Program-made: the position numbers and the translations under genes | From: a virus | Reading direction: 5' to 3' (one strand) | IMG/VR virus record: IMGVR_UViG_3300045988_072096 | DNA: 64,000 nt | Notes under the pieces: generated by a model | The model's database searches: none | Told to the model about the DNA's origin: nothing | The model's input: only the letters and a program-made list of their open reading frames with translations | Part shown: positions 5,236 to 25,781 of the stretch, piece after piece | Numbering within the stretch: the first letter of the stretch is position 1 | Layout: each line of letters starts with the position of its first letter

Positions 5236-5289
5236 CCTGATTAGCAGCAGGAGGTCTGCTAAAAGTAAAATACCAAAATTATCAAAATT

Positions 5290-5670: not shown

Positions 5671-5676
5671 TGCGTT

Positions 5677-6135: not shown

Positions 6136-6144
6136 AAAGACAGT

Positions 6145-6333: not shown

Positions 6334-6524
6334 CATACAACATGTGTAGATTTTTAATATCGCTATTGGTAGGATTATTTCTATTCCTTGCGATAATTGG
6401 GATAATATTTCTTATCGTAAATCCCTTGCAGTCGTTATTTCTGACTATTATTCTAATAGTACAGTTATTGGCAGCATTCATCTTCTATGTGCTCATTCTA
6501 TGTGAGATACTAGATAATCATTAA
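6330..6524 (+). CDS. Small two-TM membrane protein (track ORF 6297..6524, start moved to the ATGA overlap)
   Basis: Two hydrophobic segments, FLISLLVGLFLFLAIIGIIFLIV and LFLTIILIVQLLAAFIFYVLIL. Confidence 0.55.
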   Translation: MTYNMCRFLISLLVGLFLFLAIIGIIFLIVNPLQSLFLTIILIVQLLAAFIFYVLILCEILDNH

Positions 6525-6546
6525 CAAATTAAAACATTTATCAAAA

Positions 6547-7029: not shown

Positions 7030-7498
7030 AAATTTCATCGTACTTTCGTTCAACAGAAACGAAAATGTAGACTCATTTGACCAGTTCTCTGAAAAAGTAT
7101 CAAGGACAATCAATCAAACAGTAAAATCATTGATTGAACGATTTGGTGTAGAAGACGTAACTGTTCATGTCATGGATGAGACAGACCTTATTAAGTTGAG
7201 TGCTCCAGCAATGATTGCAATTGAGAAAAAAGCCAGTGAAATAGTTACGCCAGAAGAACATGCAATAGTGTTCCTCTGCTCGAAATACGTAAAAGACCGC
7301 CAGTTTTTACGCAAAAAGTTCATATCTGATATCCTATCAAAGGAGAAAGAGACAATGAATGCTGTAAAAATACTTGGTAGGTCAGAACTGTCATACGATC
7401 AACTTGTTGACATAGTCGACAAGAAGATGGTAGTAAAATTGGCTTTTACTCGGCCAGTCTATGAGCAAATACAACTTGCATATTCATTCATCTTGTAA
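7022..7498 (+). CDS. Hypothetical protein (158 aa)
   Basis: ATG ORF that overlaps the upstream stop. Confidence 0.65.
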   Translation: MNKNFIVLSFNRNENVDSFDQFSEKVSRTINQTVKSLIERFGVEDVTVHVMDETDLIKLSAPAMIAIEKKASEIVTPEEHAIVFLCSKYVKDRQFLRKKFISDILSKEKETMNAVKILGRSELSYDQLVDIVDKKMVVKLAFTRPVYEQIQLAYSFIL

Positions 7499-7502
7499 CA
7501 CC

Positions 7503-7634
7503 ATGTGTACCAGAGACAAACGGGAAGATCCTAAAAAGATCTATAAACCCAAACACGTTAATGCAAAGCCCTATAAAAGGACAAAAGCAAAAAAAGATTT
7601 CCGTGATTATACGGACGAAGATACAGACTATTAA
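7503..7634 (+). CDS. Possible small basic protein (43 aa; below the track threshold)
   Basis: Hand translation gives MCTRDKREDPKKIYKPKHVNAKPYKRTKAKKDFRDYTDEDTDY with a TAA stop. Confidence 0.3.
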   Translation: MCTRDKREDPKKIYKPKHVNAKPYKRTKAKKDFRDYTDEDTDY

Positions 7635-7669
7635 GTCTAATTTGTTTAATTTTTAAAATCATTATCAAA

Positions 7670-8122
7670 ATGGCAAAAGAAACTAAAAAAGTAGAGGTAG
7701 CAAAAACAGTAGTTGACGAAAACAATGTTCTTGACACAATCAAGAATGGTAACAAAATGCCCGATGGCTTGGCTGATGAAGTAAAGAACGAAATCGCCGA
7801 AGAGGAGAAAAAGAAGAAGAAGAGTATCCTCAAGGAGAAGATCTTGAAGGCCGGCTATTGGAACAAGAAGGAACTGCTGCAGTTGCGCCAGCGTCGTCGC
7901 GAGGAGAAGGCGACGAAGGAAGCTCTGACTCGCTCAAAAGAGCAGTTAGACAATTTGGCAAGTGGCAAAATCACGCCTGTCGAGTACGAAGAAGAGCTTA
8001 AGAAGTCTCAACAAGAGAAAGATAAGGCCGTTCGTGAGAGCAATGAGGCATATCGCAAAGAATTGCGTGAGCTTCAGAACTCTCTCGAAGGCGACTACGC
8101 CTGGGATTGGGACCGCTACTAA
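7670..8122 (+). CDS. Lys/Glu-rich coiled-coil protein (150 aa)
   Basis: Charged low-complexity sequence (EEEKKKKKSILKEK..). GC-richer than neighbours. Preceded by the conserved leader box. Confidence 0.75.
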   Translation: MAKETKKVEVAKTVVDENNVLDTIKNGNKMPDGLADEVKNEIAEEEKKKKKSILKEKILKAGYWNKKELLQLRQRRREEKATKEALTRSKEQLDNLASGKITPVEYEEELKKSQQEKDKAVRESNEAYRKELRELQNSLEGDYAWDWDRY

Positions 8123-8169
8123 AAGCTCGATTCATAAATTGAATTCAGATCATAGAACCTTTGAGTCAC

Positions 8170-8307
8170 ATGATTAAGTGGAAGGGAAAGTTTACGCCTG
8201 AAGTCTGGCATTATGCAGCAGTTGCGGAACGCCACAGACATGAATTGACATGTCATACAGAGCCTAGAGCCAGTTATGAATTCAGATGCCGAACTTACGG
8301 TAGTTAA
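8170..8307 (+). CDS. Possible 45-aa ORF directly behind an AGAACCTTTGAGTCA box
   Basis: Hand translation gives MIKWKGKFTPEVWHYAAVAERHRHELTCHTEPRASYEFRCRTYGS with a TAA stop. Confidence 0.3.
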   Translation: MIKWKGKFTPEVWHYAAVAERHRHELTCHTEPRASYEFRCRTYGS

Positions 8308-8714
8308 ATATAAGTCACATGATCAAAAGAATTGAATCTTAGCGAGTCATTGGAGCCTCGACGAGGTTAGTGTAGGCTAACTACGTCGACTGAGATGTAA
8401 ATCAAAAATGTTGAAAGCGACATGCAAGAGTCTTAGAGCCAGTCATATCACCGCTTATATTGAGCCAAATAAAGCCGTTTTAAAGCGTTATTAATCAATT
8501 GTGAAGTAGCTAATCACATGAGACCAAATAGCGTCTTAAAACGGCTTAAAACAGGCTTAAATCAAATGTTCTATCTGATCAATAGAACATTTACAAAGAA
8601 TAATAGCATGTATGAGGTAATTTACGAAGACGAGGGTTCGACTCCCTCATGGTCCACGTCTACATATACATTCTCATAAAATATAATTGATCCATCGTAA
8701 AACGAAAATTATCG

Positions 8715-8747
8715 CCAATGTGGTTCGTGAGAATAGCATTGGTTTTT
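8715..8747 (+). terminator. Terminator-like hairpin with conserved 14-nt loop (copy 1)
   Basis: CCAATGT / GGTTCGTGAGAATA / GCATTGG followed by TTTTT. Confidence 0.55.
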
Positions 8748-8890
8748 AACAAGGGCCATACTGGATTTGATTCGTAAAGGAAGTAAATACGTTAAGTGCT
8801 ACTATATAAATTCAACTGGCAACTATAATGTTGTAGACTACACACATGTAGCATGAGTGTAATCTGAGTGTTTCCTACTAAAGTGGAGGA

Positions 8891-8938
8891 AGATGTAATA
8901 CGATAGGCGTACATTGTGGTTCGAGCCCACTACATCTA
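8891..8938 (+). ncRNA. tRNA-like element lacking an anticodon arm (acceptor, D-like hairpin and T arm)
   Basis: Acceptor AGATGTA/TACATCT (7 bp). D-like hairpin TACG-ATAGG-CGTA. T arm GTGG-TTCGAGC-CCAC. Only CAT occupies the place of the anticodon and variable region. Confidence 0.55.
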
Positions 8939-8982
8939 CGAAATTTATTTGTCTATTGTTTATGAAAAGTTATTAGAGTAGT

Positions 8983-9013
8983 AATGCACGGTTCGTGAGA
9001 ATAGTGCATTTTT
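8983..9013 (+). terminator. Terminator-like hairpin with conserved 14-nt loop (copy 2)
   Basis: AATGCAC / GGTTCGTGAGAATA / GTGCATT followed by TTTTT. The loop is identical to copy 1 and the stem covaries. Confidence 0.55.
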
Positions 9014-9022
9014 AATTTGATT

Positions 9023-9475
9023 ATGAGCAATACAGGATATAAAGCTATGTTACGAGACAGAGTCCCGTACGTAGTAAATCTAGCATTACTATGGTGTAAT
9101 TCCAAAGGAAGCTGGATTAATCATGTTTATGAAACGCAAATCGCTATTTATGTGAATAAAAAAGATCGAGATGATGCCACACGAAACGTATTAGGTCTTA
9201 AAAAACATAATAAAGGATTTAACTTTCATAAATCTATTGATTGGGGTAACCTAAGTGTAGATGATAAAACCAAATGGGAAAACATCGAAGCGTGGGTTAC
9301 TTGGTTCCAAGTTCATCATATGTATATCAAATATATATGTGATTGTGCTTTAGCGAAAGGTGAAAAAATAAACACTATTAAAGAAAGTGTCAAAAAATAT
9401 CTTTCGTCCTCTGTTGATCCCAGTTTATGGGATAAATTGGTAACATTCTTAATTAATAATTTAGTTTATGAATAG
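9023..9475 (+). CDS. Hypothetical protein (track ORF starts at TTG 9017; first ATG is 9023); stops at TAG
   Basis: Clean ORF. The TAG stop at 9473-9475 overlaps the next ATG (ATGAATAG). Confidence 0.65.
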   Translation: MSNTGYKAMLRDRVPYVVNLALLWCNSKGSWINHVYETQIAIYVNKKDRDDATRNVLGLKKHNKGFNFHKSIDWGNLSVDDKTKWENIEAWVTWFQVHHMYIKYICDCALAKGEKINTIKESVKKYLSSSVDPSLWDKLVTFLINNLVYE

Positions 9476-9914
9476 TTTCCCCTATATTTTAACACAACGT
9501 CTAATGTTAGAAAAACTAAGATTGGGCGTAAACGTTGATGTTTCTAATGTAAATACTATGAGTAAAACTTTAACGGCGTTGCGTATCGCAAACAATCAAG
9601 GCGTTAATGCTGGAAAAGTGTATATACCAGAAGTATTTATTAGAGGCAATTCGTGGTCAAAACAAAATCAAAGAATCTTAGAATATTTAGCTTCAAGTAA
9701 GATATTTCAAAATAGAGCACTATGGATATATCGTAATATAATCATAACCTGCAACACAGATGAGTGGACTACAGGTGATGTCAAAATACGAATAGTTTCC
9801 AGCGCTATGAGATGTTTGTTTGACAAAGACGATTACATATATGTATGTGATTCTCTTTTAGCCAATATTAAAGATTTGAGAGAATGTTTGATAAACGAAT
9901 CGCTGCCATTTTGA
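9468..9914 (+). CDS. Hypothetical protein (148 aa)
   Basis: ATG ORF with a TGA stop. Confidence 0.65.
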   Translation: MNSFPYILTQRLMLEKLRLGVNVDVSNVNTMSKTLTALRIANNQGVNAGKVYIPEVFIRGNSWSKQNQRILEYLASSKIFQNRALWIYRNIIITCNTDEWTTGDVKIRIVSSAMRCLFDKDDYIYVCDSLLANIKDLRECLINESLPF

Positions 9915-10024
9915 GCAGCACCCGTGTCTCCAAAGAGAGTAGTGTTTAATCACAGCACGGGACATTATGAGCACCGTCTCTTACGTTAGTGACAGACTAA
10001 TAACCGGTTTAAAATTTGTTGATT

Positions 10025-10579
10025 ATGAAGAATCCTAAGATTACCCAAGAGGAGATTCGTCTAATCAAGGACGCAAAAGCTGGTAATATACTAGCTTTTA
10101 ATAAACTTTTTTATCGCTATAAAGGCTTCGTAGACAATGTGCTGTATCAGTACATTAAAGACTACGATGAAGCGAAGGACATTACTAATATAGTATTCCT
10201 TAAAGTTTATGAAAAACTCTCGACTTTCGTAGATTATGACTCCTTTGGAGGATGGCTACGAATTATTGCTAATAGAACGGCTATAGATTACCTGCGTAAA
10301 ATCGGGGACAAAAACAGAATGCTTGGAGATAATGACAACAAAGTGTCGCTGGAACAAATAGATTCTACGGAGCACGATGCGGTCAATCGAATTACGTATG
10401 AACAACTATTGAAAGAGTTTGACCAACTCAACCCAGTCCACAAGCAGATATGCCTGTTATTCTATAAAGATAATCTAACGGTTGATCAAATTAGTAAAAC
10501 TTTAAACATTTCACCTGGTACGATTAAGTCTATACTTTCTCGTACGAGAACAAAAATCATTAAACGCTTTAAACAGTAA
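10025..10579 (+). CDS. ECF-type sigma-70 family RNA polymerase sigma factor
   Basis: Region 2-like segment DEAKDITNIVFLKVYEKLSTFVDYDSFGGWLRIIANRTAIDYLRKI. Region 4-like HTH segment LTVDQISKTLNISPGTIKSILSRTRTKI. Confidence 0.85.
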   Translation: MKNPKITQEEIRLIKDAKAGNILAFNKLFYRYKGFVDNVLYQYIKDYDEAKDITNIVFLKVYEKLSTFVDYDSFGGWLRIIANRTAIDYLRKIGDKNRMLGDNDNKVSLEQIDSTEHDAVNRITYEQLLKEFDQLNPVHKQICLLFYKDNLTVDQISKTLNISPGTIKSILSRTRTKIIKRFKQ

Positions 10580-10580
10580 A

Positions 10581-11009
10581 ATGGCATTATTTTGGTTCAT
10601 TTGCGGGATATTGTTAATATGCGGAATCGCCCGATATAACGAATCCAACAAATTGTTCTGGACATTGCTGGTATCCTTCGTAGGTACCTTTGCTGCTGCA
10701 AGCATCATTATTGCAACATGTAATAACGACACGAAGAACGTTGAAGCTAATGTTAGCCCCACACAGTTGTATGTAAGCACACAACCTTCATCGCTTTACG
10801 CCATGGACATGACTTACGATACCACTTACGATGTACCTACAAATACATCAGTCACTGTGAGTAAGGATTACTACATTAGTAACAACGTTCTTTCGGACAG
10901 CAGAGTAAGTAACTTAGAAGACAAACCACCACAATCCAAACAATTATGTTACAATATTTCGATACCTCCTAAATTAAGTAAGTTTAATCCAATTAAAGAT
11001 TCATCGTGA
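10581..11009 (+). CDS. Two-TM membrane protein immediately downstream of the sigma factor
   Basis: Its ATG is 1 nt after the sigma factor stop. TM segments LFWFICGILLICGIA and LLVSFVGTFAAASIIIA. An anti-sigma role is inferred from position only. Confidence 0.65.
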   Translation: MALFWFICGILLICGIARYNESNKLFWTLLVSFVGTFAAASIIIATCNNDTKNVEANVSPTQLYVSTQPSSLYAMDMTYDTTYDVPTNTSVTVSKDYYISNNVLSDSRVSNLEDKPPQSKQLCYNISIPPKLSKFNPIKDSS

Positions 11010-11067
11010 ACTACTTGTATATCACAATGAGTTCACAAGTTATTAACATTAAAAACATTTATCAAAA

Positions 11068-12435
11068 ATGACAAACAAAAATAAGAAGAGCGTTATTCCT
11101 ACCGCTCCTAGAACTAAGAAGGAAGAGACCGTAAATAACGGTGAGAAGACAAACACCACCGTAGAAGTAATTGATGCAAAATCGCTGAAGAACTTGACTC
11201 AGCCTAAACAGCAAGCAGGTCTTGATGCAAACCATCAAGTAGACATGCTGATGGGCCTTAAGGCCTATTTCCACGACGATCCGTCTGCAGAGGCTAAGTT
11301 CGGCAAAGACCCTGTTGATAAGATCAACCGTCTAACAGCGATTGGTTTCGCCACAGCATTCGTACAAGAGGCCTTTAACGGTGATAACAACTGGGCAGCT
11401 ACAATGCGTACAGCACAGTTGGAGGAACTTAAGGCAGTAGCTCCGATGATCGGTTTTACGATCGATACGAAACTGCTTCCAAAGCCTGACGAGGCGGGTA
11501 ACGTAGTTGTCCCTGCAAAAGCTGTAAAGGTAACTAAGGAGACCAAGAAAAAGCTAGAAGCAGAGAAGAAGGTTATCAACTCTACGCCGATCATTGATCC
11601 AACTAAGATCGAAAACGAAGATCAGCTGAAACAGAGCTTGACCTTTATGTTGTCCGATCCGTCTGTACGTCGTCCCTATGACAGAATCGTACGTGCAACT
11701 GAGTTTCTTCGCTCCTATCAGCTTTTACAGGCCAATGGTAACGAGGATACCACTACTTCCACTAACAGTAAGTCCATATCAGATCTTCTTGAGGAAGTAC
11801 GCGTGCTAGTCGGAGAAATCCCATTCTCTACTGTAGGTCTCAGTCACTTCATTTACCTCAAAACTTCAGAGTCAAAGAGTCCAATATTCGCATTCTGTCT
11901 GTTGCGCAATGCGTCTAAGAATAAGGACACTGATGTTGTTCCTATAAACGACAATGTAATTGCAGCAATGGTTCGTACTCTGGTAAACTGGACAAACGAG
12001 CCTAAGCTTATTGAAGCTACTAAGAGTCTTGAGCGTGCTAAAGCAGAACTTGCTGCCGGTAACACAAATCAAGACTATGTTGATGCTGTACAGCACAATG
12101 TAGATTATCACAAAGAGATATTTGAGGCAGTTACAAACTGTCCAACAGACTTTGCAGACAACTTGCTTGACAACCTTAATAGTGAAGATACAGAGCTGCA
12201 TAAAGCTACATGTCTAGCAGAAAGTGGCATACTTAAGTCATACTATCCTTCATTGGAGAGTGTTGACGCAGCCGGAGAACAGAAGGATCAGCTAATGCAC
12301 GACATACAGCAGCGTGCGGGTATCATCACCAATCTGTTCCGCGATCCTCTCTCACAGGATATCCGATACAGTGAGACAAACCTCTCTTATGAGGCACCTA
12401 AAGCAGAAGAAAAGAAGGCTGAAGAAAAAAACTAA
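11068..12435 (+). CDS. Hypothetical protein (455 aa), probably abundant
   Basis: Long clean ORF, GC-richer than neighbours, preceded by the conserved leader box. Confidence 0.8.
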   Translation: MTNKNKKSVIPTAPRTKKEETVNNGEKTNTTVEVIDAKSLKNLTQPKQQAGLDANHQVDMLMGLKAYFHDDPSAEAKFGKDPVDKINRLTAIGFATAFVQEAFNGDNNWAATMRTAQLEELKAVAPMIGFTIDTKLLPKPDEAGNVVVPAKAVKVTKETKKKLEAEKKVINSTPIIDPTKIENEDQLKQSLTFMLSDPSVRRPYDRIVRATEFLRSYQLLQANGNEDTTTSTNSKSISDLLEEVRVLVGEIPFSTVGLSHFIYLKTSESKSPIFAFCLLRNASKNKDTDVVPINDNVIAAMVRTLVNWTNEPKLIEATKSLERAKAELAAGNTNQDYVDAVQHNVDYHKEIFEAVTNCPTDFADNLLDNLNSEDTELHKATCLAESGILKSYYPSLESVDAAGEQKDQLMHDIQQRAGIITNLFRDPLSQDIRYSETNLSYEAPKAEEKKAEEKN

Positions 12436-12530
12436 TTCAGTCCACTAAAGAGAAAATCTCAGCTTTAGGAGGACGAGTGAAACAATGGTGGGACAATGTT
12501 AAACCATATTAGAGATTATCAAAATCGATT

Positions 12531-12965
12531 ATGCGAAAGTTAACAACAATCCTATGCAGCATTGCCTTTGCATTATCAGGTATTTGCCTGGCAAAGATAA
12601 CAACTGCTAATTCTTCAACATCATCTCAAGTTGTGGCAGCTACTATGCCCGATATTAACTTGAATGATATAAAGTTGCCTAAAGACCTTACATTAGATCT
12701 ACAGCAACAGGATAGTATCCGTTCACCCGGCAAACCGGATACTGTCTATTTAGAAAAGCCGGAAGTAAAAACCAAAAAATCTAAGAAGGTTCGCGCACCT
12801 CGAAGAGTAGCAACGAAGACAGTCCACGTCCCAGTTGTCTATCTAATAACGCGTATGGATAACAAGGAAGACTCCATTAGTCATGACAGCCTACCGATCT
12901 ACAAAGTAGAGAAAATAGGAAAGATTGATCTAAAAAAGTTCAATTCCTCCATAGATATTAATTAG
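12531..12965 (+). CDS. Secreted or signal-peptide protein (144 aa); stops at TAG
   Basis: N-terminus MRKLTTILCSIAFALSGICLA. TAG stop at 12963-12965. Confidence 0.65.
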   Translation: MRKLTTILCSIAFALSGICLAKITTANSSTSSQVVAATMPDINLNDIKLPKDLTLDLQQQDSIRSPGKPDTVYLEKPEVKTKKSKKVRAPRRVATKTVHVPVVYLITRMDNKEDSISHDSLPIYKVEKIGKIDLKKFNSSIDIN

Positions 12966-15122
12966 TATTTTAGTTTTGGATTGTGCAGCTGTGCGCTACA
13001 TGATCCAAAACCTATGGGTAAGTACTTATAGTAGGTCTCATTAGCCTATGTACGAAATTTATACTTGATCCGAGAATATGTTAGCCGTCTCAAACGGTGA
13101 GATCACTCAAAAGGTAGGATGAAATGCATTGTATACTGAAAATATATAATGTAAGTAGGATTAGCGCTGTATCAGATCCTAGAAACCATATAACTGGACT
13201 TGTGAGAACCGTTTGGAGACAAGCTGGATGAAGAAGTATGGTTTTGAAACGCATAAGTCTCAAAAAGAGCATAATGAACCGTATCGGAATTATATTCAAT
13301 GATACTAAGAATATACGAACGAGACACGAGATGAACATATCTATCAATACTGAAAATTTATATTGTGGGAAATTACATACATGGTATGGTGTAATTTGCA
13401 ATGATATCAATATAAAACGAGAGTAAGTGACCAAAAATAGGTATGAGTATCACTAAAAATAGCTGTAGCATAGTGTTCCTTGGTTCCAACCCAAGTATGA
13501 AGGTGTGAAGAAAATACACAGATTGTTCTATATCATAAGGATAATACTTATGAAGTGTATCGTAAATATGCTGTCTATGTAAGTCCCTGCTGTTAGATTC
13601 AGCACATCTCCGTTGAAGGGGAGCCAGTGATGGGGTAAAACGACTGATACAAGATGAAGTGTGACCGACAGGCTTTTGTAGTTTATCGGTATATAAAAGA
13701 GAAACTACCAGGAGGGTAGGGCAGACCCTTAGTTAGGTTATGATAACCGTACATCGTAATCTATGCGCGATACGAGGCCGCGAACAAAGTCTGATATGAA
13801 TACACTAAGTTCAGTAAGCAGAATGATGTGTATTGGACATAGTATAAAAAACTATGCCAATTCCGGTGATTACGTTATAATCAAAAAACTCTTGATCAGA
13901 GAACAGATCACTTACGTAAGTCGATTCGACACTGTACACGCCAGTACTGCATGAGATCGCTTTCGTTTCAAGACAGATGATAGTTAGAAGGTTCAACTAT
14001 GTATACATATATTACAGTCCCTATGGGATAGAATCCGTTATACTGTAACTGCGTATACATTTTGAAATAAGATACTTCTTACAAAGATAAGTCAGCGATA
14101 AAATTAAGAATTAACATGTTTAACAAAAATTAGGTGTCCCCAGATAGCGAAAAACCTACGTTGTAAGTAGGGAGTAGTGAAGTCTGAAACCTGAGTACCA
14201 ACCGTTATATGTAACCAGAACTAAAGTATGGACAGCAAATCCATGCGTAAACTCTAAAGGTAGGCATAATACATGGAAATGATGGGCAGCTTTAAGGAGC
14301 TATGAGACGCAGTGCAATAGCGTATGCAGGTGATGTATCGAAAACATCTCTTACTATCCACTGTCTCTGGATGTGTAAGAAACTCTTAAAGTGGGTGACA
14401 AGTGAAAATGTATGAGTTGAAATCTCAATATTCGTGTACTATAAATAAATGAGGTAGAAACACCAAGAACAGAAAGTCCGTAGGATCGCAGATGCCCCCT
14501 GAAGGCATAGATCGTTCGATAATGAAACGTACTCCTTGCGTAAACAGCTACACACGCACGTAGCAAACAGGAAAACCGTCAACAGGACATCCTCCATGAC
14601 GTTAAACCGAAGGATGCTCAAACAGAATGTTTTTGTAGTTAAAATAGGGAAACTGTCAAAGATATTCAAGACATTGTGGGTTAAGATACATATTGCGCAT
14701 TAGTCCAATTGGAAATTTTGCCGATTGTCTAACAATCAGTATCAAGAAACGTACGGAAGATCTTCGTACAATATTTATCTATAAATAAATATGGCATCGT
14801 ACATAAACGTAGATGTCTAAAACAAGATTGATTTCTTCATAGCAGCATTCAAAGCTTTACCGAAATACAGACGATGGGCTTAGCCAATCATACCGTTTGA
14901 TTCCCGTTGTGCAATTGAGCTTCATTTTAAGGAATATAAAACACAACTATATCTGTATAAAGCGTGGTTCCCATTAGCACACCAACTGTATGCAAGCAAT
15001 ATATTTAACATAAATACACCTAAGTGACTCTCCGAAGCAGTGTATTTTCTTTTTTTAATTAACATTATTAACAAAAAATATCGTTGGTTTAATCAAAAAC
15101 GATATCAAAAAGGATATTTTTT
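12966..15122 (+). other. 2.16-kb ORF-free, hairpin-dense region: candidate large structured RNA(s)
   Basis: Stops of all three kinds occur in every frame I checked. Only short low-complexity track ORFs are present. Many 5-9 bp hairpins and long-range complements occur. The strand is assumed from the flanking genes. Confidence 0.6.
14406..14898 (+). ncRNA. RNase P RNA-like candidate (hypothesis)
   Basis: GAAAGTCCG (14472-14480) resembles CR-I. ACAGA-CGAT-GGGCTTA (14867-14882) resembles CR-V. These two can form a P4-like helix, AAGTCCGT/ATGGGCTT. A 13-bp P1-like helix pairs 14406-14419 with 14885-14898. GTAAAC..AGCAA lies at 14540-14565. Confidence 0.3.
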
Positions 15123-15731
15123 ATGGCAACAACAACAATTAACGTAAACGTACAAAACGCCCTGTCGGGCAACCGTAACCCTATCTCATTGATGGGTGCT
15201 AACCTTGGTAAACAATTCTTCACAACAGAGGTCCGCGACTGTTGGCCCAACTTTGAGAAGGAAAAGAACACCATCCAAATGAACGATCAGAAGACGCTGA
15301 TCACTAATCGTTCACCTCGTCGCTATCGTATTAACGCTAAAGATATCTATGGTATCATAATCGATACCGATATCAACAACAATCCGGTGATCAAGATTAA
15401 TCCTCATAAGGACGGTCTTGCTGATGCCACCATCGCAATCTCTTCAGATATGAAGGATTACGGTGTAGTAACCGAAGAAGCTGTCAAGGAGGCATTGAAG
15501 AATGCTAACGATCCTAACTTGACAGTAACACACGCATTCAAGGATCCTCAGAAGCTGATCCAGTTTATAAATATGCTTAATCAGAGTGAGTACGAAAGTA
15601 TTCAGACTCTGATCGATGCTCTCTGCAAAATGCAGCAGAGTATCAAGTCAGCTATGGCTGATAACACAAAGAAAGTAAACGACTATATGGAACAACTCAA
15701 TAGTCGTGTGGACATCAACATTCATGACTAA
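15123..15731 (+). CDS. Hypothetical protein (202 aa)
   Basis: Clean GC-richer ORF with a TAA stop. Confidence 0.75.
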   Translation: MATTTINVNVQNALSGNRNPISLMGANLGKQFFTTEVRDCWPNFEKEKNTIQMNDQKTLITNRSPRRYRINAKDIYGIIIDTDINNNPVIKINPHKDGLADATIAISSDMKDYGVVTEEAVKEALKNANDPNLTVTHAFKDPQKLIQFINMLNQSEYESIQTLIDALCKMQQSIKSAMADNTKKVNDYMEQLNSRVDINIHD

Positions 15732-16306
15732 TGAAACGCTGCTTGTCACCTGGTTCGGTAGCACTCATCAAGTATTTGTTGAGTGACGAACGAATCTCTG
15801 ACAAGGTATTTAACAACACTAAAGATAAAGCTAAGTATAAATCGATAACTATCCGAGAAGATGGTACGATTATACTTGGCAAAACAAGTTGTCTTTGGTG
15901 GAATCAGTTATTGGCTTGTCAGGATAAAATTCCATTCAACGATTTTGCGTTGAAAGTATGGGACGCTTTGGTAAACCTCTCTACAGGAGGTAATTCTGAA
16001 GCACTTGAACACGGACTTAGTACTGAGATTGCGAACTTATCACAACGCGAAGGCGATTACGATAATTTGGTTCATCGTTTGGTGGACTGCTATGAACATG
16101 TATGTAATAACAAGGGAAAACTGCCTCTCGAGGGAGGCTCGGAGAAGTCGGATCTGGAAGGGACTCTTAAAAAGCATATTAATGTTCCAAGTAATATTGT
16201 AATCAACGTCGATGGAGTGAAAAAGAAAACTCTCTCTTTTAACGATAGTTTTGGTGATAAATGGATTGATGTAGACTTAGGAGTAACAGGAGTAAGTATT
16301 CGATAG
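15731..16306 (+). CDS. Hypothetical protein (191 aa); TAG stop backed by TAA
   Basis: ATGA overlap with the upstream gene. Ends in the tandem stop TAG TAA (16304-16309). Confidence 0.7.
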   Translation: MKRCLSPGSVALIKYLLSDERISDKVFNNTKDKAKYKSITIREDGTIILGKTSCLWWNQLLACQDKIPFNDFALKVWDALVNLSTGGNSEALEHGLSTEIANLSQREGDYDNLVHRLVDCYEHVCNNKGKLPLEGGSEKSDLEGTLKKHINVPSNIVINVDGVKKKTLSFNDSFGDKWIDVDLGVTGVSIR

Positions 16307-16613
16307 TAATTAAGGTAATTATATAAATCTTGCGGGATTTCGTGCTGTATTACCGAGGTATTTATAGCACATCTTACTGAGATTACTAAAGAGTATTTAT
16401 AAATGTTATAACTAATCTATATTACCATATATCAGCAAAATAGCGGCGTATCTATCCTAAACGATTTGTATTACAAATCAGAGCATTGTATCTGCGGATT
16501 TCAATGTTCAAGGGTAGATATGTCAATTTATTATACAGTTGTACGTATAATAAATACAGGTAGATGATGAACTCGAATTCAACTAACTGAAGTTTAATTT
16601 AAATCAAAACTAT

Positions 16614-17159
16614 ATGAATAAGACATCAATGAAATTGAATTCAAGTAACATTATTAACATTCGTAAAGATCTTTGTGAGAAGATAACGAAGTATTGGCGA
16701 ACTATCCGTAACGAAAACGTTATGTCAACTAAAGCAATTAAGGCAGGACTCGGTTCGGGTTGTGACCTTAAATCTCTGCATAATGAGATTACTCAGATGG
16801 CAGAAAAGCGTATCATAGTTAAAGGTATGCTGATGTATCTTAATATGGGCCTAAAGTTTGACTTGGCCGAATTTAAGAAGAGCAATAACTATGTTATTTT
16901 TGCAGCATGTGAGGCAAAAGAAGCAATTGCTCAACTCAAAATGATTCCTACTATCAACCCTGTAGAAAAATCGCAAAAAGGGCTAAAGGGTACTGGAAAG
17001 AAGGAAACATTCACTAGTGCAAAAATTGCACAATTGATAAAGAATCTTCAGTTGAAAGCGAACAAATATGACTCTCAATTGGAGAAATTTAATACAGAGA
17101 CTACAATCGATATTCCAGAAAGCTTATCTAATATGTTTAAGGATGATATCGCTGTATAA
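16614..17159 (+). CDS. Hypothetical protein (181 aa)
   Basis: ATG ORF with a TAA stop. Confidence 0.7.
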   Translation: MNKTSMKLNSSNIINIRKDLCEKITKYWRTIRNENVMSTKAIKAGLGSGCDLKSLHNEITQMAEKRIIVKGMLMYLNMGLKFDLAEFKKSNNYVIFAACEAKEAIAQLKMIPTINPVEKSQKGLKGTGKKETFTSAKIAQLIKNLQLKANKYDSQLEKFNTETTIDIPESLSNMFKDDIAV

Positions 17160-17279
17160 AATAACTCTGACTCGGTGTGAAGGACCTTATAGGTAACTAT
17201 AATTACAGATCGTGGCTGTAACGAGTCACTTCCCTTTTTCTCTAAGTAATAACATGTTTAATTAAAAATCATTATCAAA

Positions 17280-18113
17280 ATGAAAAAGAAAACTAAAAAT
17301 ATAAAGGCAAAGAAGTCTGTAACATTGAACAAGTCTAATAAGACAGTGAATAAAACTGAAGTAACTAAAGCGAGACAGGAAAAGGCAGACAAACTTAAGA
17401 AAGAAAAGAACGAACGAAAAGAACAAAATATAGCAAACAATCAGTTAGCTTTAGATAAGTTAAGTAAAGCCGCTATAGATAAATTAAGTAAGGCATTGTT
17501 GTCGATGGGTGGAGTTAAGAAAACAGAACTAACTCCGAAAGACAAAGAACTTGTTAAAAAGAAGACAGAAGAACTGCGTGAACTACGAAAACAGCAATAC
17601 GAGCAACGTAGATTGCGTTCACTGAAACGTCGACTTAAGCTAGGCAAAAAGTCCGAAGAAGAGATGAAAAAGTCTCTCGAGGAACTAAAAAAAGAAATGG
17701 CAGAACAAAAGCGCTATGACGTGCTACTATTGTTCAATCCAAAAGAGAAAGAACCTATTTCTGCAGCATTGGTGGAAAACAAAATAACAGCAACTTATAT
17801 AAGCAATGATTATCTGTGGATAAAGAACACAGATATCCACATTGTCAATAAACTGCGTGGTCTGCCATTGAAGTTTAACTTATGGCCGTACAAAGCAGTA
17901 GAGCCTAAAGAGCCGAAAGAAAAAGCCACAAAGAAGCCTACTGTTAGCAAGACTGTAAAAAAGCCTACTGCCAACACTGTACAAGTACGTAGAGCAGCAA
18001 AAGCACGTAGAAAGACTACGAATTTAGCTAAATTTATGGCTAAACACGCTCATGCTGTGGCTAAAATAGCTGAACGTAAAGCCATCAACAAAACCATTAA
18101 ACAAGCCGCTTGA
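17280..18113 (+). CDS. Highly basic Lys-rich protein (277 aa), possibly nucleic-acid binding
   Basis: K/R/E-rich throughout. Preceded by the conserved leader box. Confidence 0.75.
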   Translation: MKKKTKNIKAKKSVTLNKSNKTVNKTEVTKARQEKADKLKKEKNERKEQNIANNQLALDKLSKAAIDKLSKALLSMGGVKKTELTPKDKELVKKKTEELRELRKQQYEQRRLRSLKRRLKLGKKSEEEMKKSLEELKKEMAEQKRYDVLLLFNPKEKEPISAALVENKITATYISNDYLWIKNTDIHIVNKLRGLPLKFNLWPYKAVEPKEPKEKATKKPTVSKTVKKPTANTVQVRRAAKARRKTTNLAKFMAKHAHAVAKIAERKAINKTIKQAA

Positions 18114-18115
18114 TT

Positions 18116-18850
18116 ATGAAAAAGACTATAAATAAACAAAAGTTAGCGCAAGAGCGCAGCTATAACCGCAAATATAACGTTAATAACAACTGTGTGCCTC
18201 CTGTTGTAAAGAATCCGTATAAAACGACGGATAAAGAAGGAAACATACATATAGAATGGAAAGCTCTTAAGGTTACCATTCCAAAAAGTCTAACGCATAC
18301 ATCGCGTTATGACAAAATTGACGATAAAAAAGTAAAGATTCCATCGGAACAGGGTGAATTTCACAAAAAATATACCATAAAAGGTATAGTGAAAAACTCT
18401 AAAGAGTATGTTGAGGCATGCGCCAAGTATAAATTGGCTAAATGGGAGAAGAAGAATCCTTGCCCAATAAAATTGGATGGAATTCAGCAGGATATGTTTG
18501 AAACCGAGTTCCTTATTCCTTGGCAAGAAAAGCGAAAGGAAGCTGAGAAGAAAGCATATGCCCATGCTGTACGAGTGTACGGACAATTTTCATTAGTCGG
18601 ACGATTTGAAACAGATCGAGAAGGCAAATATGAAGAACATACAATCGGAAAATTACGTGATATAGATGGTAGTACCGCTAAATACGGCGGTATTAACCAT
18701 TGTCCCGAGAAAGTACCGATTATTCAAGCTGCTACACTAATAGCAAATACAACAAAAGCTAAAATAAAGACTCTTGTATCAATAGTGGTAAAAGATTCTT
18801 ACAACACACAAGGCCGAATAATTCTGCCTAAGTTGTCAGAAGCAGCTTAA
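18116..18850 (+). CDS. Hypothetical protein (track ORF starts at TTG 18110; first ATG is 18116)
   Basis: Clean ORF with a TAA stop. Confidence 0.7.
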   Translation: MKKTINKQKLAQERSYNRKYNVNNNCVPPVVKNPYKTTDKEGNIHIEWKALKVTIPKSLTHTSRYDKIDDKKVKIPSEQGEFHKKYTIKGIVKNSKEYVEACAKYKLAKWEKKNPCPIKLDGIQQDMFETEFLIPWQEKRKEAEKKAYAHAVRVYGQFSLVGRFETDREGKYEEHTIGKLRDIDGSTAKYGGINHCPEKVPIIQAATLIANTTKAKIKTLVSIVVKDSYNTQGRIILPKLSEAA

Positions 18851-18861
18851 TAATTTTTCCA

Positions 18862-18952
18862 TGCAGTGAAGTCTATGTGCGCATAGCTCCTGAAGAGAGA
18901 TGACATCGTAGCGGATAACGTCTCTTAGTGGGTTCGAGTCCCACCACTGCAA
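18862..18952 (+). ncRNA. 91-nt tRNA-like element with canonical acceptor and T arm but a non-canonical core
   Basis: Acceptor TGCAGTG/CACTGCA (7 bp). T arm GTGGG-TTCGAGT-CCCAC. The central 59 nt fold as CTAT-GTGCGC-ATAG plus AAGAGA/TCTCTT rather than as D and anticodon arms. Confidence 0.5.
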
Positions 18953-18978
18953 CTATATTAACTAAGAACCTTTGAGTC

Positions 18979-20862
18979 ATGATAATACGAAATTCCGTCG
19001 TAGTAGTATACGACATAGAGATCTTCCCAAACGTATTTCATTGTACTTGTAAAGACACAGAGGAAAATAAATTGTACTTTTTTGAAATATCAGATCGTAA
19101 AAATCAGCTAACAGAATTAGTTGATTTTTTCTTTTATAAGAATATAGGCGATAAGATGTTTTGTGGGTATAATAACAAACACTATGATGATGTAGTAATA
19201 AACTATCTTATAGATTTTTATTATAAAATGGATACATTATCATATGATAAAGTTTGTACATCTTTGTATAATCTTTCAAATACGATAGTTACGGCAGAAG
19301 AAGGTGATACTAGTAAATTCAAGCGATGGAAATATGCAAAGTATTTCTACTCAATGGATTTGCTAACAATGTTGTTTAGTTCTAAGTTACGTGTAGGTCT
19401 TAAAGAAATGCAAGTAACTATGCACTACAAAAATGTAGAAGAATATTCTGGTGACTTTAGTCAGTTTCTACCAGATTCAGAAATAGATAACATGATAAAA
19501 TATAATATAAACGATGTAGAGTCAACAACTGAACTTCTAAATAGGTTGAAAGACGATGTACAACTACGTCTGTTTATAGAAAAAGAATACGGTATTGATG
19601 CCTTATCGATGGATAGTGTAAAATTCGGAGAGACACTTCTATTGAAAAAGTATTGTGAACAAACAAAACTTAGTGAACAATATGTGAAAACATTGCGTTC
19701 ACCTATGGATTACATTCCGTTAAAAGACGTCATATTACCGTTCATATCGTACAAAAATCCAAAATTACAAGACGTTCTTGAGGATATGAAGAGCCAAGTA
19801 GTATATTCTAAAGAACGCAAAGGCTATGAGAAGAAGTTTGTTCTCTCAAACGTACGCTATTCTGTAGGTGTAGGAGGTATACATTCCTTGCATACACCAC
19901 AAATCTTCGTTCCTAATGACAATGAATACATAGGTCATTCGGATGTGGCTAGTATGTACCCTTCGTTTATCATAAAGTATAGATGGATTCCACGTCATTT
20001 AGGTAAAGAATTTTGGCAAGTATATTCGCAAATATATAAAGAGCGAATAGAAGCAAAACATAGTGGACAGAAATTAAAGAACTTAGCTCTAAAGTTAACT
20101 TTGAATTCTGTCACCGGAAAAATGCAACAGGAAACCAGTTGGATGTACGATCCATTCAGTGTCTTTAAGATACGTATCAATGGACAATTGATACTATTGA
20201 TGTTAGTGGATCGACTGCTGGAGTTGAACTGTAAGATTGTGCAGGTCAACACAGATGGTGTGATGTATATTGCTCAAAAGACACAACGTGAAGCAGTGCA
20301 GGAAGCTGTTTCAGAAGTTGAGCAATTAACACAACTGACTTTCGAGTCCGATGACTATGAGGCGTTTTATCAGTACGCCATAAATGACTATTTTGGTGTC
20401 GAAAAAGGGTATTCACAATCTCACGACCCTAAACTGATAGAGAAAAAGGGAATGTTTATCACAGATCCTAGATTGGGTAAAGGGTTAGCACCAGCCATTA
20501 TTCCAAAGGCTGTGATAAACTATTTTTTAACCAAACAACCAACTTTTGAGTACATCAAATCGTCCAAAGACATTAAAGACTTTATGATGTACCAGCGCGT
20601 AGATAAGAAGTTCAAAGTTCTACATGGTGATAAACCTGTACAACGAATAAATCGATTCTATGCGTCAACAAACGATTATTCCTTGTTCAAGGTAGATGAC
20701 ACAGGTAAAGTAGCGAATATGCTTACTAAATCTGGAGTAACTATCTTAAACGAGATGAATGATATCCCAATTGAAAACAGACATATAAATTACCAGTATT
20801 ATATTGGTGAGGCAAATAAAATCATATCAGAATTTGTCTGTCAACAGTTGGAGCTGTTTTAG
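18979..20862 (+). CDS. Family B DNA polymerase with 3'-5' exonuclease domain
   Basis: Exo I VYDIEIF, Exo II YNNKHYDD, Exo III YNINDVEST. Pol motif A DVASMYPS, motif B KLTLNSVTGK, motif C VNTDGV. Ends in TAG TAA. Confidence 0.95.
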   Translation: MIIRNSVVVVYDIEIFPNVFHCTCKDTEENKLYFFEISDRKNQLTELVDFFFYKNIGDKMFCGYNNKHYDDVVINYLIDFYYKMDTLSYDKVCTSLYNLSNTIVTAEEGDTSKFKRWKYAKYFYSMDLLTMLFSSKLRVGLKEMQVTMHYKNVEEYSGDFSQFLPDSEIDNMIKYNINDVESTTELLNRLKDDVQLRLFIEKEYGIDALSMDSVKFGETLLLKKYCEQTKLSEQYVKTLRSPMDYIPLKDVILPFISYKNPKLQDVLEDMKSQVVYSKERKGYEKKFVLSNVRYSVGVGGIHSLHTPQIFVPNDNEYIGHSDVASMYPSFIIKYRWIPRHLGKEFWQVYSQIYKERIEAKHSGQKLKNLALKLTLNSVTGKMQQETSWMYDPFSVFKIRINGQLILLMLVDRLLELNCKIVQVNTDGVMYIAQKTQREAVQEAVSEVEQLTQLTFESDDYEAFYQYAINDYFGVEKGYSQSHDPKLIEKKGMFITDPRLGKGLAPAIIPKAVINYFLTKQPTFEYIKSSKDIKDFMMYQRVDKKFKVLHGDKPVQRINRFYASTNDYSLFKVDDTGKVANMLTKSGVTILNEMNDIPIENRHINYQYYIGEANKIISEFVCQQLELF

Positions 20863-20893
20863 TAACCAGCTTGTTAACCAAAGAGTATAAGAG

Positions 20894-21460
20894 ATGATTA
20901 TTGAAGTAGATACAAAGCTGCTAAACGCAGCACCAAATATCAATCTAAATCAGTTGATATTCCTAAGTATGGTATTGAATAAGAATCAAATTCCAAATCA
21001 AGACGTTCGCAAAATTGTCAGCCTTATTAGCGACGATGAAATATCATACTTAATTTCTCAGGGACTTGTAACCTTGATAGAGAAAGGTAGTTCAAAGATA
21101 TATCAGGAAACAGACCTACTTAAACAAAAAATAGCACCCGATAAAGACTATTTCGATCTGTTTTATGATATATACCCAGTATACGTATTACGCCCAGATG
21201 GTGTTAAAAGCTATCTTCGTGCAAACGTAAATAAATGTCGTCATTTCTTTAATGTTACAACTGGTAATAGTATAGCAATGAAGGAACATCTAATTAATTG
21301 TCTTCAATACGAGATAAATAAAAAGACTCGTGAAGGTAAAATTGGTTATATGAAAACGATGTGGAGATGGTTAATAGACCATCAATGGGAAGAAACTGAG
21401 GAAGAGATGGCAGATAATAGTACAACAAACACAAATGCTTATGGAACAGAGTTATTGTAA
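20894..21460 (+). CDS. Hypothetical replication-module protein (188 aa)
   Basis: Clean ORF between the polymerase and the helicase. Confidence 0.7.
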   Translation: MIIEVDTKLLNAAPNINLNQLIFLSMVLNKNQIPNQDVRKIVSLISDDEISYLISQGLVTLIEKGSSKIYQETDLLKQKIAPDKDYFDLFYDIYPVYVLRPDGVKSYLRANVNKCRHFFNVTTGNSIAMKEHLINCLQYEINKKTREGKIGYMKTMWRWLIDHQWEETEEEMADNSTTNTNAYGTELL

Positions 21461-24289: not shown

Positions 24290-24331
24290 TATCGGAATGG
24301 TTTTAGAGAGGTTCGATTCCTCTCCCGATAA
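24290..24331 (+). ncRNA. tRNA-like minihelix (acceptor stem, 10-nt GG-containing linker, T arm)
   Basis: Acceptor TATCGG(A)/(C)CCGATA (6 bp). Linker ATGGTTTTAG. T arm AGAGG-TTCGATT-CCTCT. Confidence 0.5.
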
Positions 24332-24534
24332 CATTGTCTAACCCGAAAATGCTTTCAGCGGAAAGTTATAAATGTCGTCCTTAAGGCGGACGTGAGGTTG
24401 AGAAACCCTCTATGTTAGATTTATTAAAAGTTTTCTTTTAGACAATTGAGTCGGCATATAAAACGTGCATTATCCGACAGTACGGCCTGCAAAGGTAGCA
24501 ACAAGCAGCTATGCTTGGTACAAAAATAGCATCT

Positions 24535-24620
24535 GGCTTAATGGTGAAATTGGTATACACACAACACTTAAAATGTTGCGTTCCGAAAGGAACTTGGGGG
24601 TTCGAGTCCCCTTTGAGCCA
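24535..24620 (+). tRNA. tRNA-Leu (UAA), class II
   Basis: Acceptor GGCTTAA/TTGAGCC. Anticodon stem CAACA/TGTTG with loop CTTAAAA. Long variable arm GTTCC-GAAA-GGAAC. T arm GGGGG-TTCGAGT-CCCCT. Confidence 0.9.
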
Positions 24621-24639
24621 CTAAGTGATATCGCTTAAC

Positions 24640-24705
24640 AGAATATACATATAGTTCAGGCAAATAAAAGACTGCGGCCTAAAGTGGTCTCTATATGTAT
24701 ATTCT
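24640..24705 (+). repeat. Perfect 15-bp inverted repeat (long hairpin)
   Basis: AGAATATACATATAG (24640-24654) pairs with CTATATGTATATTCT (24691-24705) around a 36-nt loop. It lies between tRNA-Leu and the next tRNA-like element. Confidence 0.8.
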
Positions 24706-24707
24706 AC

Positions 24708-24777
24708 CGCCGTAATAGCATTTAGGAATTAATACACTCTTACGAGAGATATTTAGGTTCGACTCCTAATACGGCAC
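24708..24777 (+). ncRNA. tRNA-like element whose anticodon arm is replaced by a 4-bp stem capped with a UACG tetraloop
   Basis: Acceptor (C)GCCGTA/TACGGC(A). GG at positions 18-19. CTCT-TACG-AGAG in place of the anticodon arm. T arm TTAGG-TTCGACT-CCTAA. Confidence 0.5.
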
Positions 24778-24803
24778 AAATACTAACTAAGAACTTATAA
24801 GTC

Positions 24804-25781
24804 ATGTATAGTACGAGAACAGCAATTACAATGAGTCTAAAAGACTTGTTAGATAAATTGACTGATTATGACATATATTCTTACTATGTTGGGCAATTTA
24901 AGATAGGAAAATTGTTCAATAGTCCACTACGATCTGATGATAAAAATCCTTCGTTCGCTATCTTTAAAGGTATGAACGGAGGGCTGTTTTTCAAAGATCA
25001 TGGTAGTGGAGAAGGTGGAAATGCTATTAAGTTTGTAAAACTATACAAGAACATCAACACAAAAGATGAACTTGAACGAGAATTGTTGCGCATCGTCCGA
25101 AAAATGAATCCTAATAGTGGTAATGCTATACGTACGTACTCCTACTCGGTGGATTCAGGGCCAACAGATATCGGAATAGTAAGACAGCCTTTTACAGATG
25201 TAGATAAACGATACTGGAAACAATTTCATATATCAATAGATACATTGAGAAAGTTTCAAGTATTTAGCATTAAATACTTTCTTTGTAATAGAGTCGTCAG
25301 AGGAACCTACAAAGAAACTAGTCCTATGTATGCATATAAAGTTGACGATAAGTTTAAAATATATCGTCCGCTTGCTTCCAAGTATACTAAATGGCGTACC
25401 AATCTGACAAATCGGAACGTACAGGGACTATCCGAATTGCCTGTGGAAGGAGGTAATCTACTTATAATCACGAAAAGTCTTAAAGACGTGATGTGTTTAT
25501 ATGAGATGGGTTTTAATGCAATAGCTGCATCTAGCGAAACAACGTTTATTCCAGACGATATTTTAGATTCGTTACGACATAAATGGAAAAATGTTATAAT
25601 GTTGTACGATAGAGATAAGACAGGAATGTTAGAATCTCGCAAGTATAGTAAACAGTATAAACTGGATGCTTTATTTGTACATAAACGCTTTAAGGCAAAA
25701 GATATATCTGATGCTGTAAAAGATAATTCATACAACGAAGTCAAACAATGGTTAACACAAACATTGATGAAATATGATTGA
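24804..25781 (+). CDS. DNA primase (TOPRIM domain)
   Basis: TOPRIM-like segments LLIITKSLKDVMCLYEMGFNAIA and VIMLYDRDKTG. N-terminal RSDDKNPSF motif. Located within the replication module. Confidence 0.8.
   Translation: MYSTRTAITMSLKDLLDKLTDYDIYSYYVGQFKIGKLFNSPLRSDDKNPSFAIFKGMNGGLFFKDHGSGEGGNAIKFVKLYKNINTKDELERELLRIVRKMNPNSGNAIRTYSYSVDSGPTDIGIVRQPFTDVDKRYWKQFHISIDTLRKFQVFSIKYFLCNRVVRGTYKETSPMYAYKVDDKFKIYRPLASKYTKWRTNLTNRNVQGLSELPVEGGNLLIITKSLKDVMCLYEMGFNAIAASSETTFIPDDILDSLRHKWKNVIMLYDRDKTGMLESRKYSKQYKLDALFVHKRFKAKDISDAVKDNSYNEVKQWLTQTLMKYD

Follow-up and report, generated by a model that had tools for sequence, protein, structure and literature searches.

We found that two non-decoding tRNA-like elements stand directly before two replication genes, the family B DNA polymerase gene (polB) and the DnaG-type primase gene, in a 64,000-nucleotide (nt) stretch of viral DNA, IMG/VR record IMGVR_UViG_3300045988_072096 (hereafter the window). 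Their structures are maintained by covariation among homologs, their position and strand are conserved, and they interchange with genuine tRNAs in related phages. Our data lean towards both elements being cis-acting tRNA mimics that would serve as RNA-processing punctuation in a polycistronic transcript of the replication module. The two elements, their leaders and the genes that follow are listed below.

18862..18952, + strand: tRNA-like element 1 (family A), 91 nt, recognized from its sequence, predicted fold and covariation
18953..18978, + strand: polB leader, 26 nt, G-poor and predicted to be unstructured, with the box AACTAAGAACCTTTGAGTC at 18960-18978
18979..20862, + strand: family B DNA polymerase gene, polB (phrog_1252, E 7.4e-138; 96% DNA identity to the DNA polymerase region of crAssphage cr131_1)
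24709..24776, + strand: tRNA-like element 2 (family C), recognized from its sequence, a sub-threshold Rfam match and a consensus of homologs
24777..24803, + strand: primase leader, 27 nt, with the box AACTAAGAACTTATAAGTC at 24785-24803, the core of which is the palindrome ACTTATAAGT
24804..25781, + strand: DnaG-type DNA primase gene (phrog_12622, E 5.2e-33; weak Pfam matches to a CHC2 zinc finger and Toprim)

Element 1 is closed by an acceptor stem of seven base pairs (bp), all seven of them Watson-Crick (TGCAGTG at 18862-18868 with CACTGCA at 18945-18951). Its T arm (GTGGG at 18928-18932, loop TTCGAGT at 18933-18939, CCCAC at 18940-18944) abuts the 3' strand of the acceptor stem as in a tRNA; the discriminator is A18952 and no CCA is encoded, the letters there being A-C-U. 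The core is predicted to fold into a bulged hairpin of 7 bp with a UGCG tetraloop at its end (18870-18888), which has no GG counterpart of D-loop G18 G19, and a long hairpin (18895-18926) of 8 + 3 bp with a 6-nt loop and the tip ACAUCGUAGCGGAUAA. A linker and this long hairpin stand where a tRNA would have an anticodon arm with a 5-bp stem, a 7-nt loop and U33. The minimum free energy fold of the element is -28.2 kcal/mol (z -2.0). ARAGORN made no call for element 1, and its best Rfam match (tRNA-Sec, 18.3 bits) lies under the gathering score of 47. The stop codon of the preceding open reading frame (ORF) lies 11 nt before element 1 and we found no terminator between the two, so the element is most likely transcribed within a polycistronic RNA. 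Its 3' end lies 26 nt before the polB ATG (18979): 11 nt (18953-18963) are followed by AAGAACCTTTGAGTCA, which runs into the start codon.

A first-pass annotation of this DNA, made from the letters alone, had given sequence details of element 1, and all of them are present, from the acceptor stem and T arm to the 11-nt gap and the box that runs into the polB ATG. Its description of a non-decoding tRNA-like element also stands, as there is no anticodon loop and the structure is conserved by covariation. The further claim that the core can form neither a D arm nor an anticodon arm is right for element 1, but the core does fold, into two conserved hairpins, and element 2 keeps a D arm.

The comparison of homologs supports the fold of element 1. 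All 27 pairs proposed for family A are paired in 100% of seven distinct homologous sequences, and double-sided compensatory changes occur at nine of these pairs, four of which are in the acceptor stem (it reads TGCAGTG, GATAGAG or GGTAGAG depending on the phage). In a control in which the 3' partners were slid, pairing was 36-56% with at most one doubly changed pair. Several pairs are G-U, including an invariant U40-G59, and would be mismatches if read on the other strand; the family A fold therefore belongs to the mRNA-sense strand. The tip of the long hairpin is nearly invariant. A scan with this invariant loop found one copy per contig on nine crAss-like contigs, a narrow clade, and the copies that were read back (eight of the nine contigs) all lie directly before polB; the remaining matches of a wider scan with the loop are chance. 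Taken together, the homologs indicate that the structure of element 1 is real and is kept under selection.

From the 3' end of element 2 to the primase ATG there are 27 nt. The element has an acceptor stem of 6 bp (GCCGTA/TACGGC), discriminator A24776, a T arm that reads TTAGG-TTCGACT-CCTAA and a GG-containing D arm, and the element and its family keep TAGCAT..GG..ATGC. A tetraloop hairpin with a 4-bp stem, CUCU-UACG-AGAG, occupies the position of the anticodon arm. ARAGORN made no call for element 2 either, and its Rfam tRNA score of 19.5 bits is under the gathering score of 29. Six homologs of family C share a cloverleaf-like consensus with compensatory changes at 6 of 18 pairs, so that covariation among homologs, which the first-pass annotation had named as a check, is present in both families. 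The anticodon position of family C degrades stepwise: two loci (L090 and L147) have a 5-bp stem and a 7-nt loop without U33, the window and cr130_1 have a 4-bp stem with a tetraloop, and the second copy in cr131_1 has nothing there. The first-pass annotation had seen the same arrangement before polB and primase, identities with which the PHROG matches agree. A tRNA-like element and the same leader box do precede primase, but element 2 is unrelated in sequence family to element 1.

Both elements share with tRNAs the acceptor stem and T arm (the tRNA top half), through which RNase P, RNase Z and the CCA-adding enzyme recognize their substrates. Matches to strict tRNA top-half geometry occur four times on the + strand of the window (two real tRNAs and elements 1 and 2) and not once on the - strand, while shuffled windows gave a mean of 0.25 matches.

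We compared the surroundings of polB at 80 loci (62-99% amino-acid identity) and of primase at 80 loci; approximately 150 related contigs were covered. Most relatives contain a coding-strand tRNA-shaped element that ends at a short, near-constant distance from the start codon, and all of the elements found in this slot before polB and primase are on the coding strand. With a relaxed detector, 34 of 54 distinct upstream regions show a T-loop-type acceptor/T-arm element whose 3' end lies 17-30 nt from the polB ATG, on a background of 0.245 per kb in the same polB loci. Before primase, the strict detector found an acceptor/T-arm element 17-30 nt from the ATG in 54 of 73 regions. The gap between element and ATG is 21-28 nt in most lineages, and other Suoliviridae subfamilies have this layout before polB too (cr4_1 and cr60_1 in Loutivirinae, cr6_1 in Bearivirinae).

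The fillers of this slot are mutually unrelated and have the tRNA top half as their sole common part. Genuine tRNAs, recognized with ARAGORN and Rfam, comprise Asn, Met, Ile, Ser and Leu before polB and Lys, Gln, Leu(GAG) and Met before primase, with at least nine anticodon identities by ARAGORN. Other fillers are families A and C, a third mimic family with a conserved CTACCAGA...GTTAGGATGGTTCT core, cloverleaves whose anticodon loops are ruined, and minihelices of 35-44 nt in which the acceptor stem, a short linker and the T arm are present without a D or anticodon arm. Minihelices form the largest primase group and show compensatory T-stem variants (ATGAG/CTCAT and ATAAG/CTTAT). The slot elements encode no CCA, as is the case for the real tRNAs of the phage, and mostly have a discriminator A and then C after the acceptor stem, ends that would fit RNase Z-type substrates.

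A conserved structured motif lies just upstream of the polB-proximal element in seven loci (L012, L018, L030, L052, L065, L066 and L068), 0-8 nt before the tRNA-like 5' end; the window does not have it. It consists of ATAATGC, a 7-bp covarying stem (variants CCCAGT/ACTGGG, GCGCAGT/ACTGCGT, CACGGT/ACCGTG and CCTAGT/ACTAGG), AAAGCCTCT, a hairpin and then GYAYGTA. It has no Rfam match and is a candidate for a new RNA motif or ribozyme, or for a 3'-end stabilizer of the upstream message.

Burzaovirus (the cr7_1 group; 44 loci with 31 distinct upstream regions) has no leader box, and the element abuts the polB ATG; the conserved N terminus MIVKERPVVLYDIE and an in-frame stop codon shortly before the ATG define this start. 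In 9 of the 31 distinct sequences, 3 nt separate the ATG from the acceptor stem of a preceding tRNA-Ile-like or tRNA-Val-like cloverleaf, and these nine cloverleaves have perfect D and T arms with mostly degenerate anticodon loops. ARAGORN called five of six that were run, two of them with impossible anticodons, and left L277 uncalled. In the remaining sequences, the ATG stands 3-4 nt after a compact stem-closed element, with a covarying hairpin that ends one nt before it. So close to a stable helix (3 nt), the start codon would be difficult for a ribosome to use before the helix is cut away. A cut after the discriminator would leave a leader of approximately 2 nt with a 5' phosphate.

The RefSeq coding sequences of polB in cr130_1 (L002) and cr7_1 (L250) begin approximately 130-150 codons downstream of the conserved ATG and are thus without the N-terminal DIE exonuclease motif. 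These starts are likely mis-annotated, as the real start comes after a tRNA-like element without a recognizable ribosome-binding site.

The first-pass annotation had regarded element 1 as fused to a conserved box. A box indeed follows both elements of the window, and its 22-nt form occurs exactly twice there against 0.02 expected occurrences. In its general form the box is an A/C-rich run and then two 5-mers 3 nt apart that adjoin the ATG (GAACC-TTT-GAGTC, GAGTC-TTA-GAACC and GAATC-ATA-GAATC, for example). The variants of the primase box in relatives preserve the palindrome by covariation (ACTTATAAGT, AGCTTAAGCT, GCTTATAAGC and ATCTTAAGAT), and in the closest relatives the box before polB is invariant while the trailer right after the element is variable. 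Weaker copies precede other replication genes of the window, at 20894, 22888 and near 23665. The box is not fused to the element, however: it persists without any tRNA-like element in Dulem virus 42 (L004) and in L048, L053 and L056, and is absent in Burzaovirus. These data indicate that the box is an independent, lineage-specific leader motif and not part of the tRNA-like element. We regard it as a putative class-specific initiation region or translational operator of the replication genes. A promoter of the sigma-70, extracytoplasmic function (ECF) or Bacteroides -7 type was rejected for the box: GAAC and GTC are merely 5-6 nt apart, the Bacteroides-type TTTG is not conserved among box variants, and a promoter scan gave background. 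Pairing of the box GAACC with a T-arm GGTTC is inconsistent between lineages.

Element 2 belongs to an intergenic array before primase that contains three further features.

24290..24330, + strand: acceptor/T-arm minihelix at the start of the array, TATCGG ... AGAGG-TTCGATT-CCTCT ... CCGATA
24535..24621, + strand: genuine tRNA-Leu(UAA) (ARAGORN; Rfam 54.2 bits)
24640..24705, + strand: very stable hairpin between tRNA-Leu and element 2, from the fold of 24622-24708 and comparison with L086 and L087

The 87-nt stretch that holds the hairpin (24622-24708) folds with -28.1 kcal/mol (z -5.7). Hairpin and element 2 together form an insertion of approximately 157 nt (24622-24778) relative to cr131_1 and L086, and in these nearest relatives, as well as in the L087 upstream sequence, tRNA-Leu(UAA) stands directly against the primase leader. 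A comparable block of approximately 150 nt with a family C-like mimic lies between element 1 and the polB leader in cr131_1 only. After each rearrangement the unit that directly adjoins the leader is again tRNA-shaped, an outcome that would fit selection for the junction between element and leader. The approximately 200 nt of non-coding sequence between the minihelix and tRNA-Leu (24331-24534, + strand) have moderate predicted structure and no Rfam match.

The processing that we propose would proceed as follows. Host RNase P would cut at the 5' end of the acceptor stem, and RNase Z or an equivalent tRNA 3' endonuclease would cut after the discriminator. Excision would separate the mRNAs of polB and primase from the message upstream and leave each with a defined 5'-monophosphate end, followed by a short leader (26-27 nt) that is G-poor and predicted to be unstructured. 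Pfam and PHROGs scans of 30 + strand ORFs found no phage-encoded RNase P, RNase Z or CCA-adding enzyme, and host tRNA-processing enzymes are assumed for this reason. Selection would act solely on the acceptor stem and T arm, the part that the enzymes recognize, and real tRNAs, anticodon-less cloverleaves and bare minihelices could therefore fill one and the same slot. Furthermore, a real tRNA in the slot becomes functional only after cuts at both ends, and if the two are co-transcribed, the message downstream would thus be cut there as well. The first-pass annotation had proposed tRNA-style punctuation as one idea; among the explanations considered here it is best supported by the comparative data, namely the interchange of tRNAs and mimics, the coding strand and the 3-nt distance to the ATG. 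Cleavage itself, the enzymes responsible and a purpose in mRNA 5'-end formation or translational activation are what we infer from these sequence comparisons.

Several points weigh against this proposal. Element 1 has no GG in a D loop, so that its elbow may be non-canonical, and the acceptor stem of element 2 has 6 bp and not 7 bp; either could lower the efficiency of RNase P or RNase Z. A pure processing signal leaves the invariant family A tip unexplained, and the majority element of Burzaovirus has no clear T loop. In a few lineages the box is kept without an element, and the element is therefore not indispensable. In addition, the top-half and T-arm detectors are home-made heuristics, and the covariation sets comprise six or seven sequences from two or three clades, the relatedness of which inflates the counts.

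The same tip, together with the conserved top half, is what a trans-acting RNA might be expected to show. In that case the elements would be stable small RNAs, either decoys or sponges for host factors or toxins that recognize the acceptor/T-arm domain or substrates for CCA addition, and their locus would merely time co-expression. The tip ACAUCGUAGCGGAUAA resembles a binding site, two minihelices of the window (8891-8937 and 24290-24330) are not beside a start codon, and the phage is rich in RNA elements, including hammerheads and tRNAs in the window and an amber suppressor tRNA in cr131_1. We nevertheless consider a trans-acting role unlikely. It does not explain why unrelated fillers, ordinary tRNAs among them, occupy the polB or primase slot across very different lineages, nor why their 3' ends keep a fixed short distance to the ATG. 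The elements have no anticodon arm with which to act as decoys for anticodon nucleases, and the decoy or sponge that the first-pass annotation had offered as an alternative to punctuation found no support in our data, a possibility to which we give little weight. Moreover, a trans-acting RNA would itself have to be excised in the same way, so that such a role would add to the processing model rather than replace it.

Retention of the element is improbable to a similar degree. If it were cut at its 5' end only, or left uncut, it could remain as a 5' structural cap that stabilizes the message or modulates initiation; element 1 is stable at -28 kcal/mol, and the 21-28-nt gap of most lineages is close to what the 30S subunit needs upstream of a start codon, so that a retained structure would be tolerated. 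Genuine tRNAs in the slot, in contrast, need release at their 3' end to function, and a retained Burzaovirus structure, with 3 nt between it and the ATG, would prevent initiation. We give still less credence to an origin as decaying tRNA pseudogenes in a recombination-prone array, or as DNA-level landing pads for module exchange, with no RNA function of their own. The array does turn over fast (the hairpin and tRNA-like block of approximately 157 nt before primase in the window is absent in cr131_1 and L086, and the similar block of approximately 150 nt before polB is found in cr131_1 only), and anticodon loops show graded decay. Yet this decay is not haphazard: compensatory changes preserve the acceptor and T stems, and loss or replacement affects the lower half; the G-U pairs suggest that the sense-strand RNA is what selection acts on, the orientation is always that of the downstream gene, and family A occurs only before polB among its nine contigs (eight read back).

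Extending processing at tRNA-shaped elements to the Suoliviridae as a whole is a more tentative step, and we hold it at slightly less than even confidence. These phages would then use mitochondria-like punctuation in which real tRNAs and top-half mimics are interchangeable, mRNAs have short leaders or, in Burzaovirus, none, translation depends on tRNA processing, and units of hairpin and mimic move between slots.

Other identities were considered and rejected. The elements are not unusual decoding or suppressor tRNAs, having no 7-nt anticodon loop, and cr131_1 has a separate normal tRNA(CUA), despite the TAG-recoded late genes. tRNA-Sec and transfer-messenger RNA (tmRNA) were rejected on sub-threshold scores and on the lack of CCA or tag logic, and a turnip yellow mosaic virus-type viral 3' tRNA-like structure (TLS) or the tRNA-like domain of a tmRNA was rejected on the internal position of the element, the lack of an encoded CCA and the lack of an Rfam tmRNA or TLS match. 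A ribozyme was rejected also: Rfam covariance models with E up to 10 gave no ribozyme match in 18700-19100 or 24480-24900, the surroundings of the two elements, and the only hammerheads are at 2500-2606 and 3562-3631. These two are RAGATH-1 hammerhead ribozymes on the + strand that score 62.5 and 68.1 bits, above the Rfam gathering threshold, and each precedes a tRNA by approximately 110 nt (tRNA-Met at 2713, tRNA-Gln at 3741).

Several known systems resemble the arrangement described here. In mitochondrial tRNA punctuation, RNase P and RNase Z (ELAC2) excise tRNAs and thereby release mRNAs, many of which are leaderless. In both cases tRNA-shaped units directly adjoin the cistrons of a polycistronic unit and lie on its coding strand, and the tRNA-type elements of Burzaovirus, which end 3 nt before the start codon, recall leaderless mitochondrial mRNAs. 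Unlike in mitochondria, we are dealing with a bacterial virus that would depend on host bacterial enzymes, with just two cistrons (polB and primase) and many non-decoding mimics, and with processing proposed from sequence comparison. Plant mitochondrial t-elements are tRNA-like structures that set mRNA 5' and 3' ends via RNase P and RNase Z. They share with the phage elements a non-decoding tRNA-like structure that is kept for its shape, flanks mRNAs and conserves the acceptor/T-arm domain, but they belong to another kingdom and have no sequence relation, while the phage elements interchange with functional tRNAs in close relatives and keep a fixed distance to the start codon. The mascRNA of MALAT1 and its MEN-beta counterpart are tRNA-like 3'-end processing signals in eukaryotic nuclear long non-coding RNAs, where the cut sets the 3' end of the upstream RNA. 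As proposed here, a tRNA-like fold inside a longer transcript is the RNase P and RNase Z site that splits two RNAs; the presumed benefit in the phage, in contrast, goes to the 5' end of the downstream mRNA.

Measured against canonical tRNA (RF00005) and tRNA-Sec (RF01852), element 1 has the 7-bp acceptor and 5-bp T stem, the UUCGAGU loop, a discriminator A and no encoded CCA, and element 2 has a D arm with GG, acceptor and T stems of 6 + 5 bp and the loop TTCGACT. Unlike canonical tRNAs, neither has a 5-bp anticodon stem or a 7-nt loop with U33 (element 2 has a UNCG-capped mini-hairpin for an anticodon arm and element 1 has none), and both fall below gathering thresholds and are uncalled by ARAGORN. 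Theta/HDV-like (hepatitis delta virus-like) ribozymes have been reported to assist tRNA processing in recoded gut phages (PMC10879173). Those phages resemble the present one in TAG recoding, tRNA genes, self-cleaving ribozymes and RNA cutting beside tRNAs; unlike there, no ribozyme motif was detected in or beside our two elements, and that paper makes no mention of tRNA-like elements or crAss phages.

Already known, then, are tRNA punctuation, plant t-elements, mascRNA-type processing and bacterial tRNA-mRNA co-transcripts. The literature that we searched holds no description of tRNA or mimic punctuation before phage replication genes, nor in crAss-like phages, and new relative to it is the family-wide, gene-specific use of tRNAs and anticodon-less mimics before such genes. 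If the processing reading is correct, this would be, per the searched literature, the first described bacterial virus to use tRNA punctuation to mature specific mRNAs, including by non-decoding mimics kept for shape alone. It would account for the "odd" or undetectable tRNA-like sequences kept by crAss-like phages and for the frequent 5' mis-annotation of polymerase genes in the group (e.g., cr7_1 and cr130_1), and would offer a handle on post-transcriptional control of their replication genes. The crAss-like phages are the most abundant phage group of the human gut, and their hosts are Bacteroidales, in which initiation is not driven by Shine-Dalgarno sequences. The elements would also be natural minimal substrates for the RNase P and RNase Z of Bacteroidales.

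By its sequence, the window is a crAss-like gut phage of the Suoliviridae, Oafivirinae. Positions 17000-21000 have 95.9% identity to crAssphage cr131_1 (Crassvirales, Suoliviridae, Oafivirinae, Cacepaovirus), and other Suoliviridae are more remote relatives of this region. The replication module occupies the + strand from approximately 15 kb to 28 kb and encodes DNA polymerase B, a DnaB-like helicase, a Sak4-like annealing protein, a DnaG-type primase and an exonuclease. The late genes on the - strand (28000-64000) are TAG-recoded: with TAG as sense, stop-free stretches reach 5874, 2398 and 1588 codons, against a maximum of 383 under the standard code, which the early and middle genes of the + strand use. 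The tRNA(CUA) lies outside the window; in cr131_1, an ordinary amber suppressor tRNA(CUA) is found at 9258-9330, beside a homing endonuclease. The window also encodes a sigma-70/ECF-like factor at 10025-10579 on the + strand (Sigma70_r2, E 4e-12; r4, E 1e-8), the cr131_1 homolog of which is annotated as sigma-W.

ARAGORN calls a permuted "tmRNA" at 8567-8947 on the + strand, and cr131_1 carries the same annotation in RefSeq. Rfam gave no tmRNA family match there, and the call is probably false; the region contains two T-arm elements (approximately 8625-8660 and the minihelix at 8891-8937) within a non-coding stretch of approximately 900 nt. A hairpin with the conserved loop GGTTCGTGAGAAT, followed by TTTTTAAT, occurs on the + strand at 8712-8750 and 8980-9012, and the second copy ends approximately 10 nt before the ORF at 9023. 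In L069 and L070 this hairpin stands in for the tRNA-like element before the polB box, and it could be a terminator-like or T-loop-mimicking element. Finally, TTTAAT..AAAAYCATTATCAAAATG lies directly before the ATG of many + strand genes in positions 1-18000 (e.g., 6547, 7670, 11068 and 17280), and is a second leader or promoter class, distinct from the box of the replication genes.

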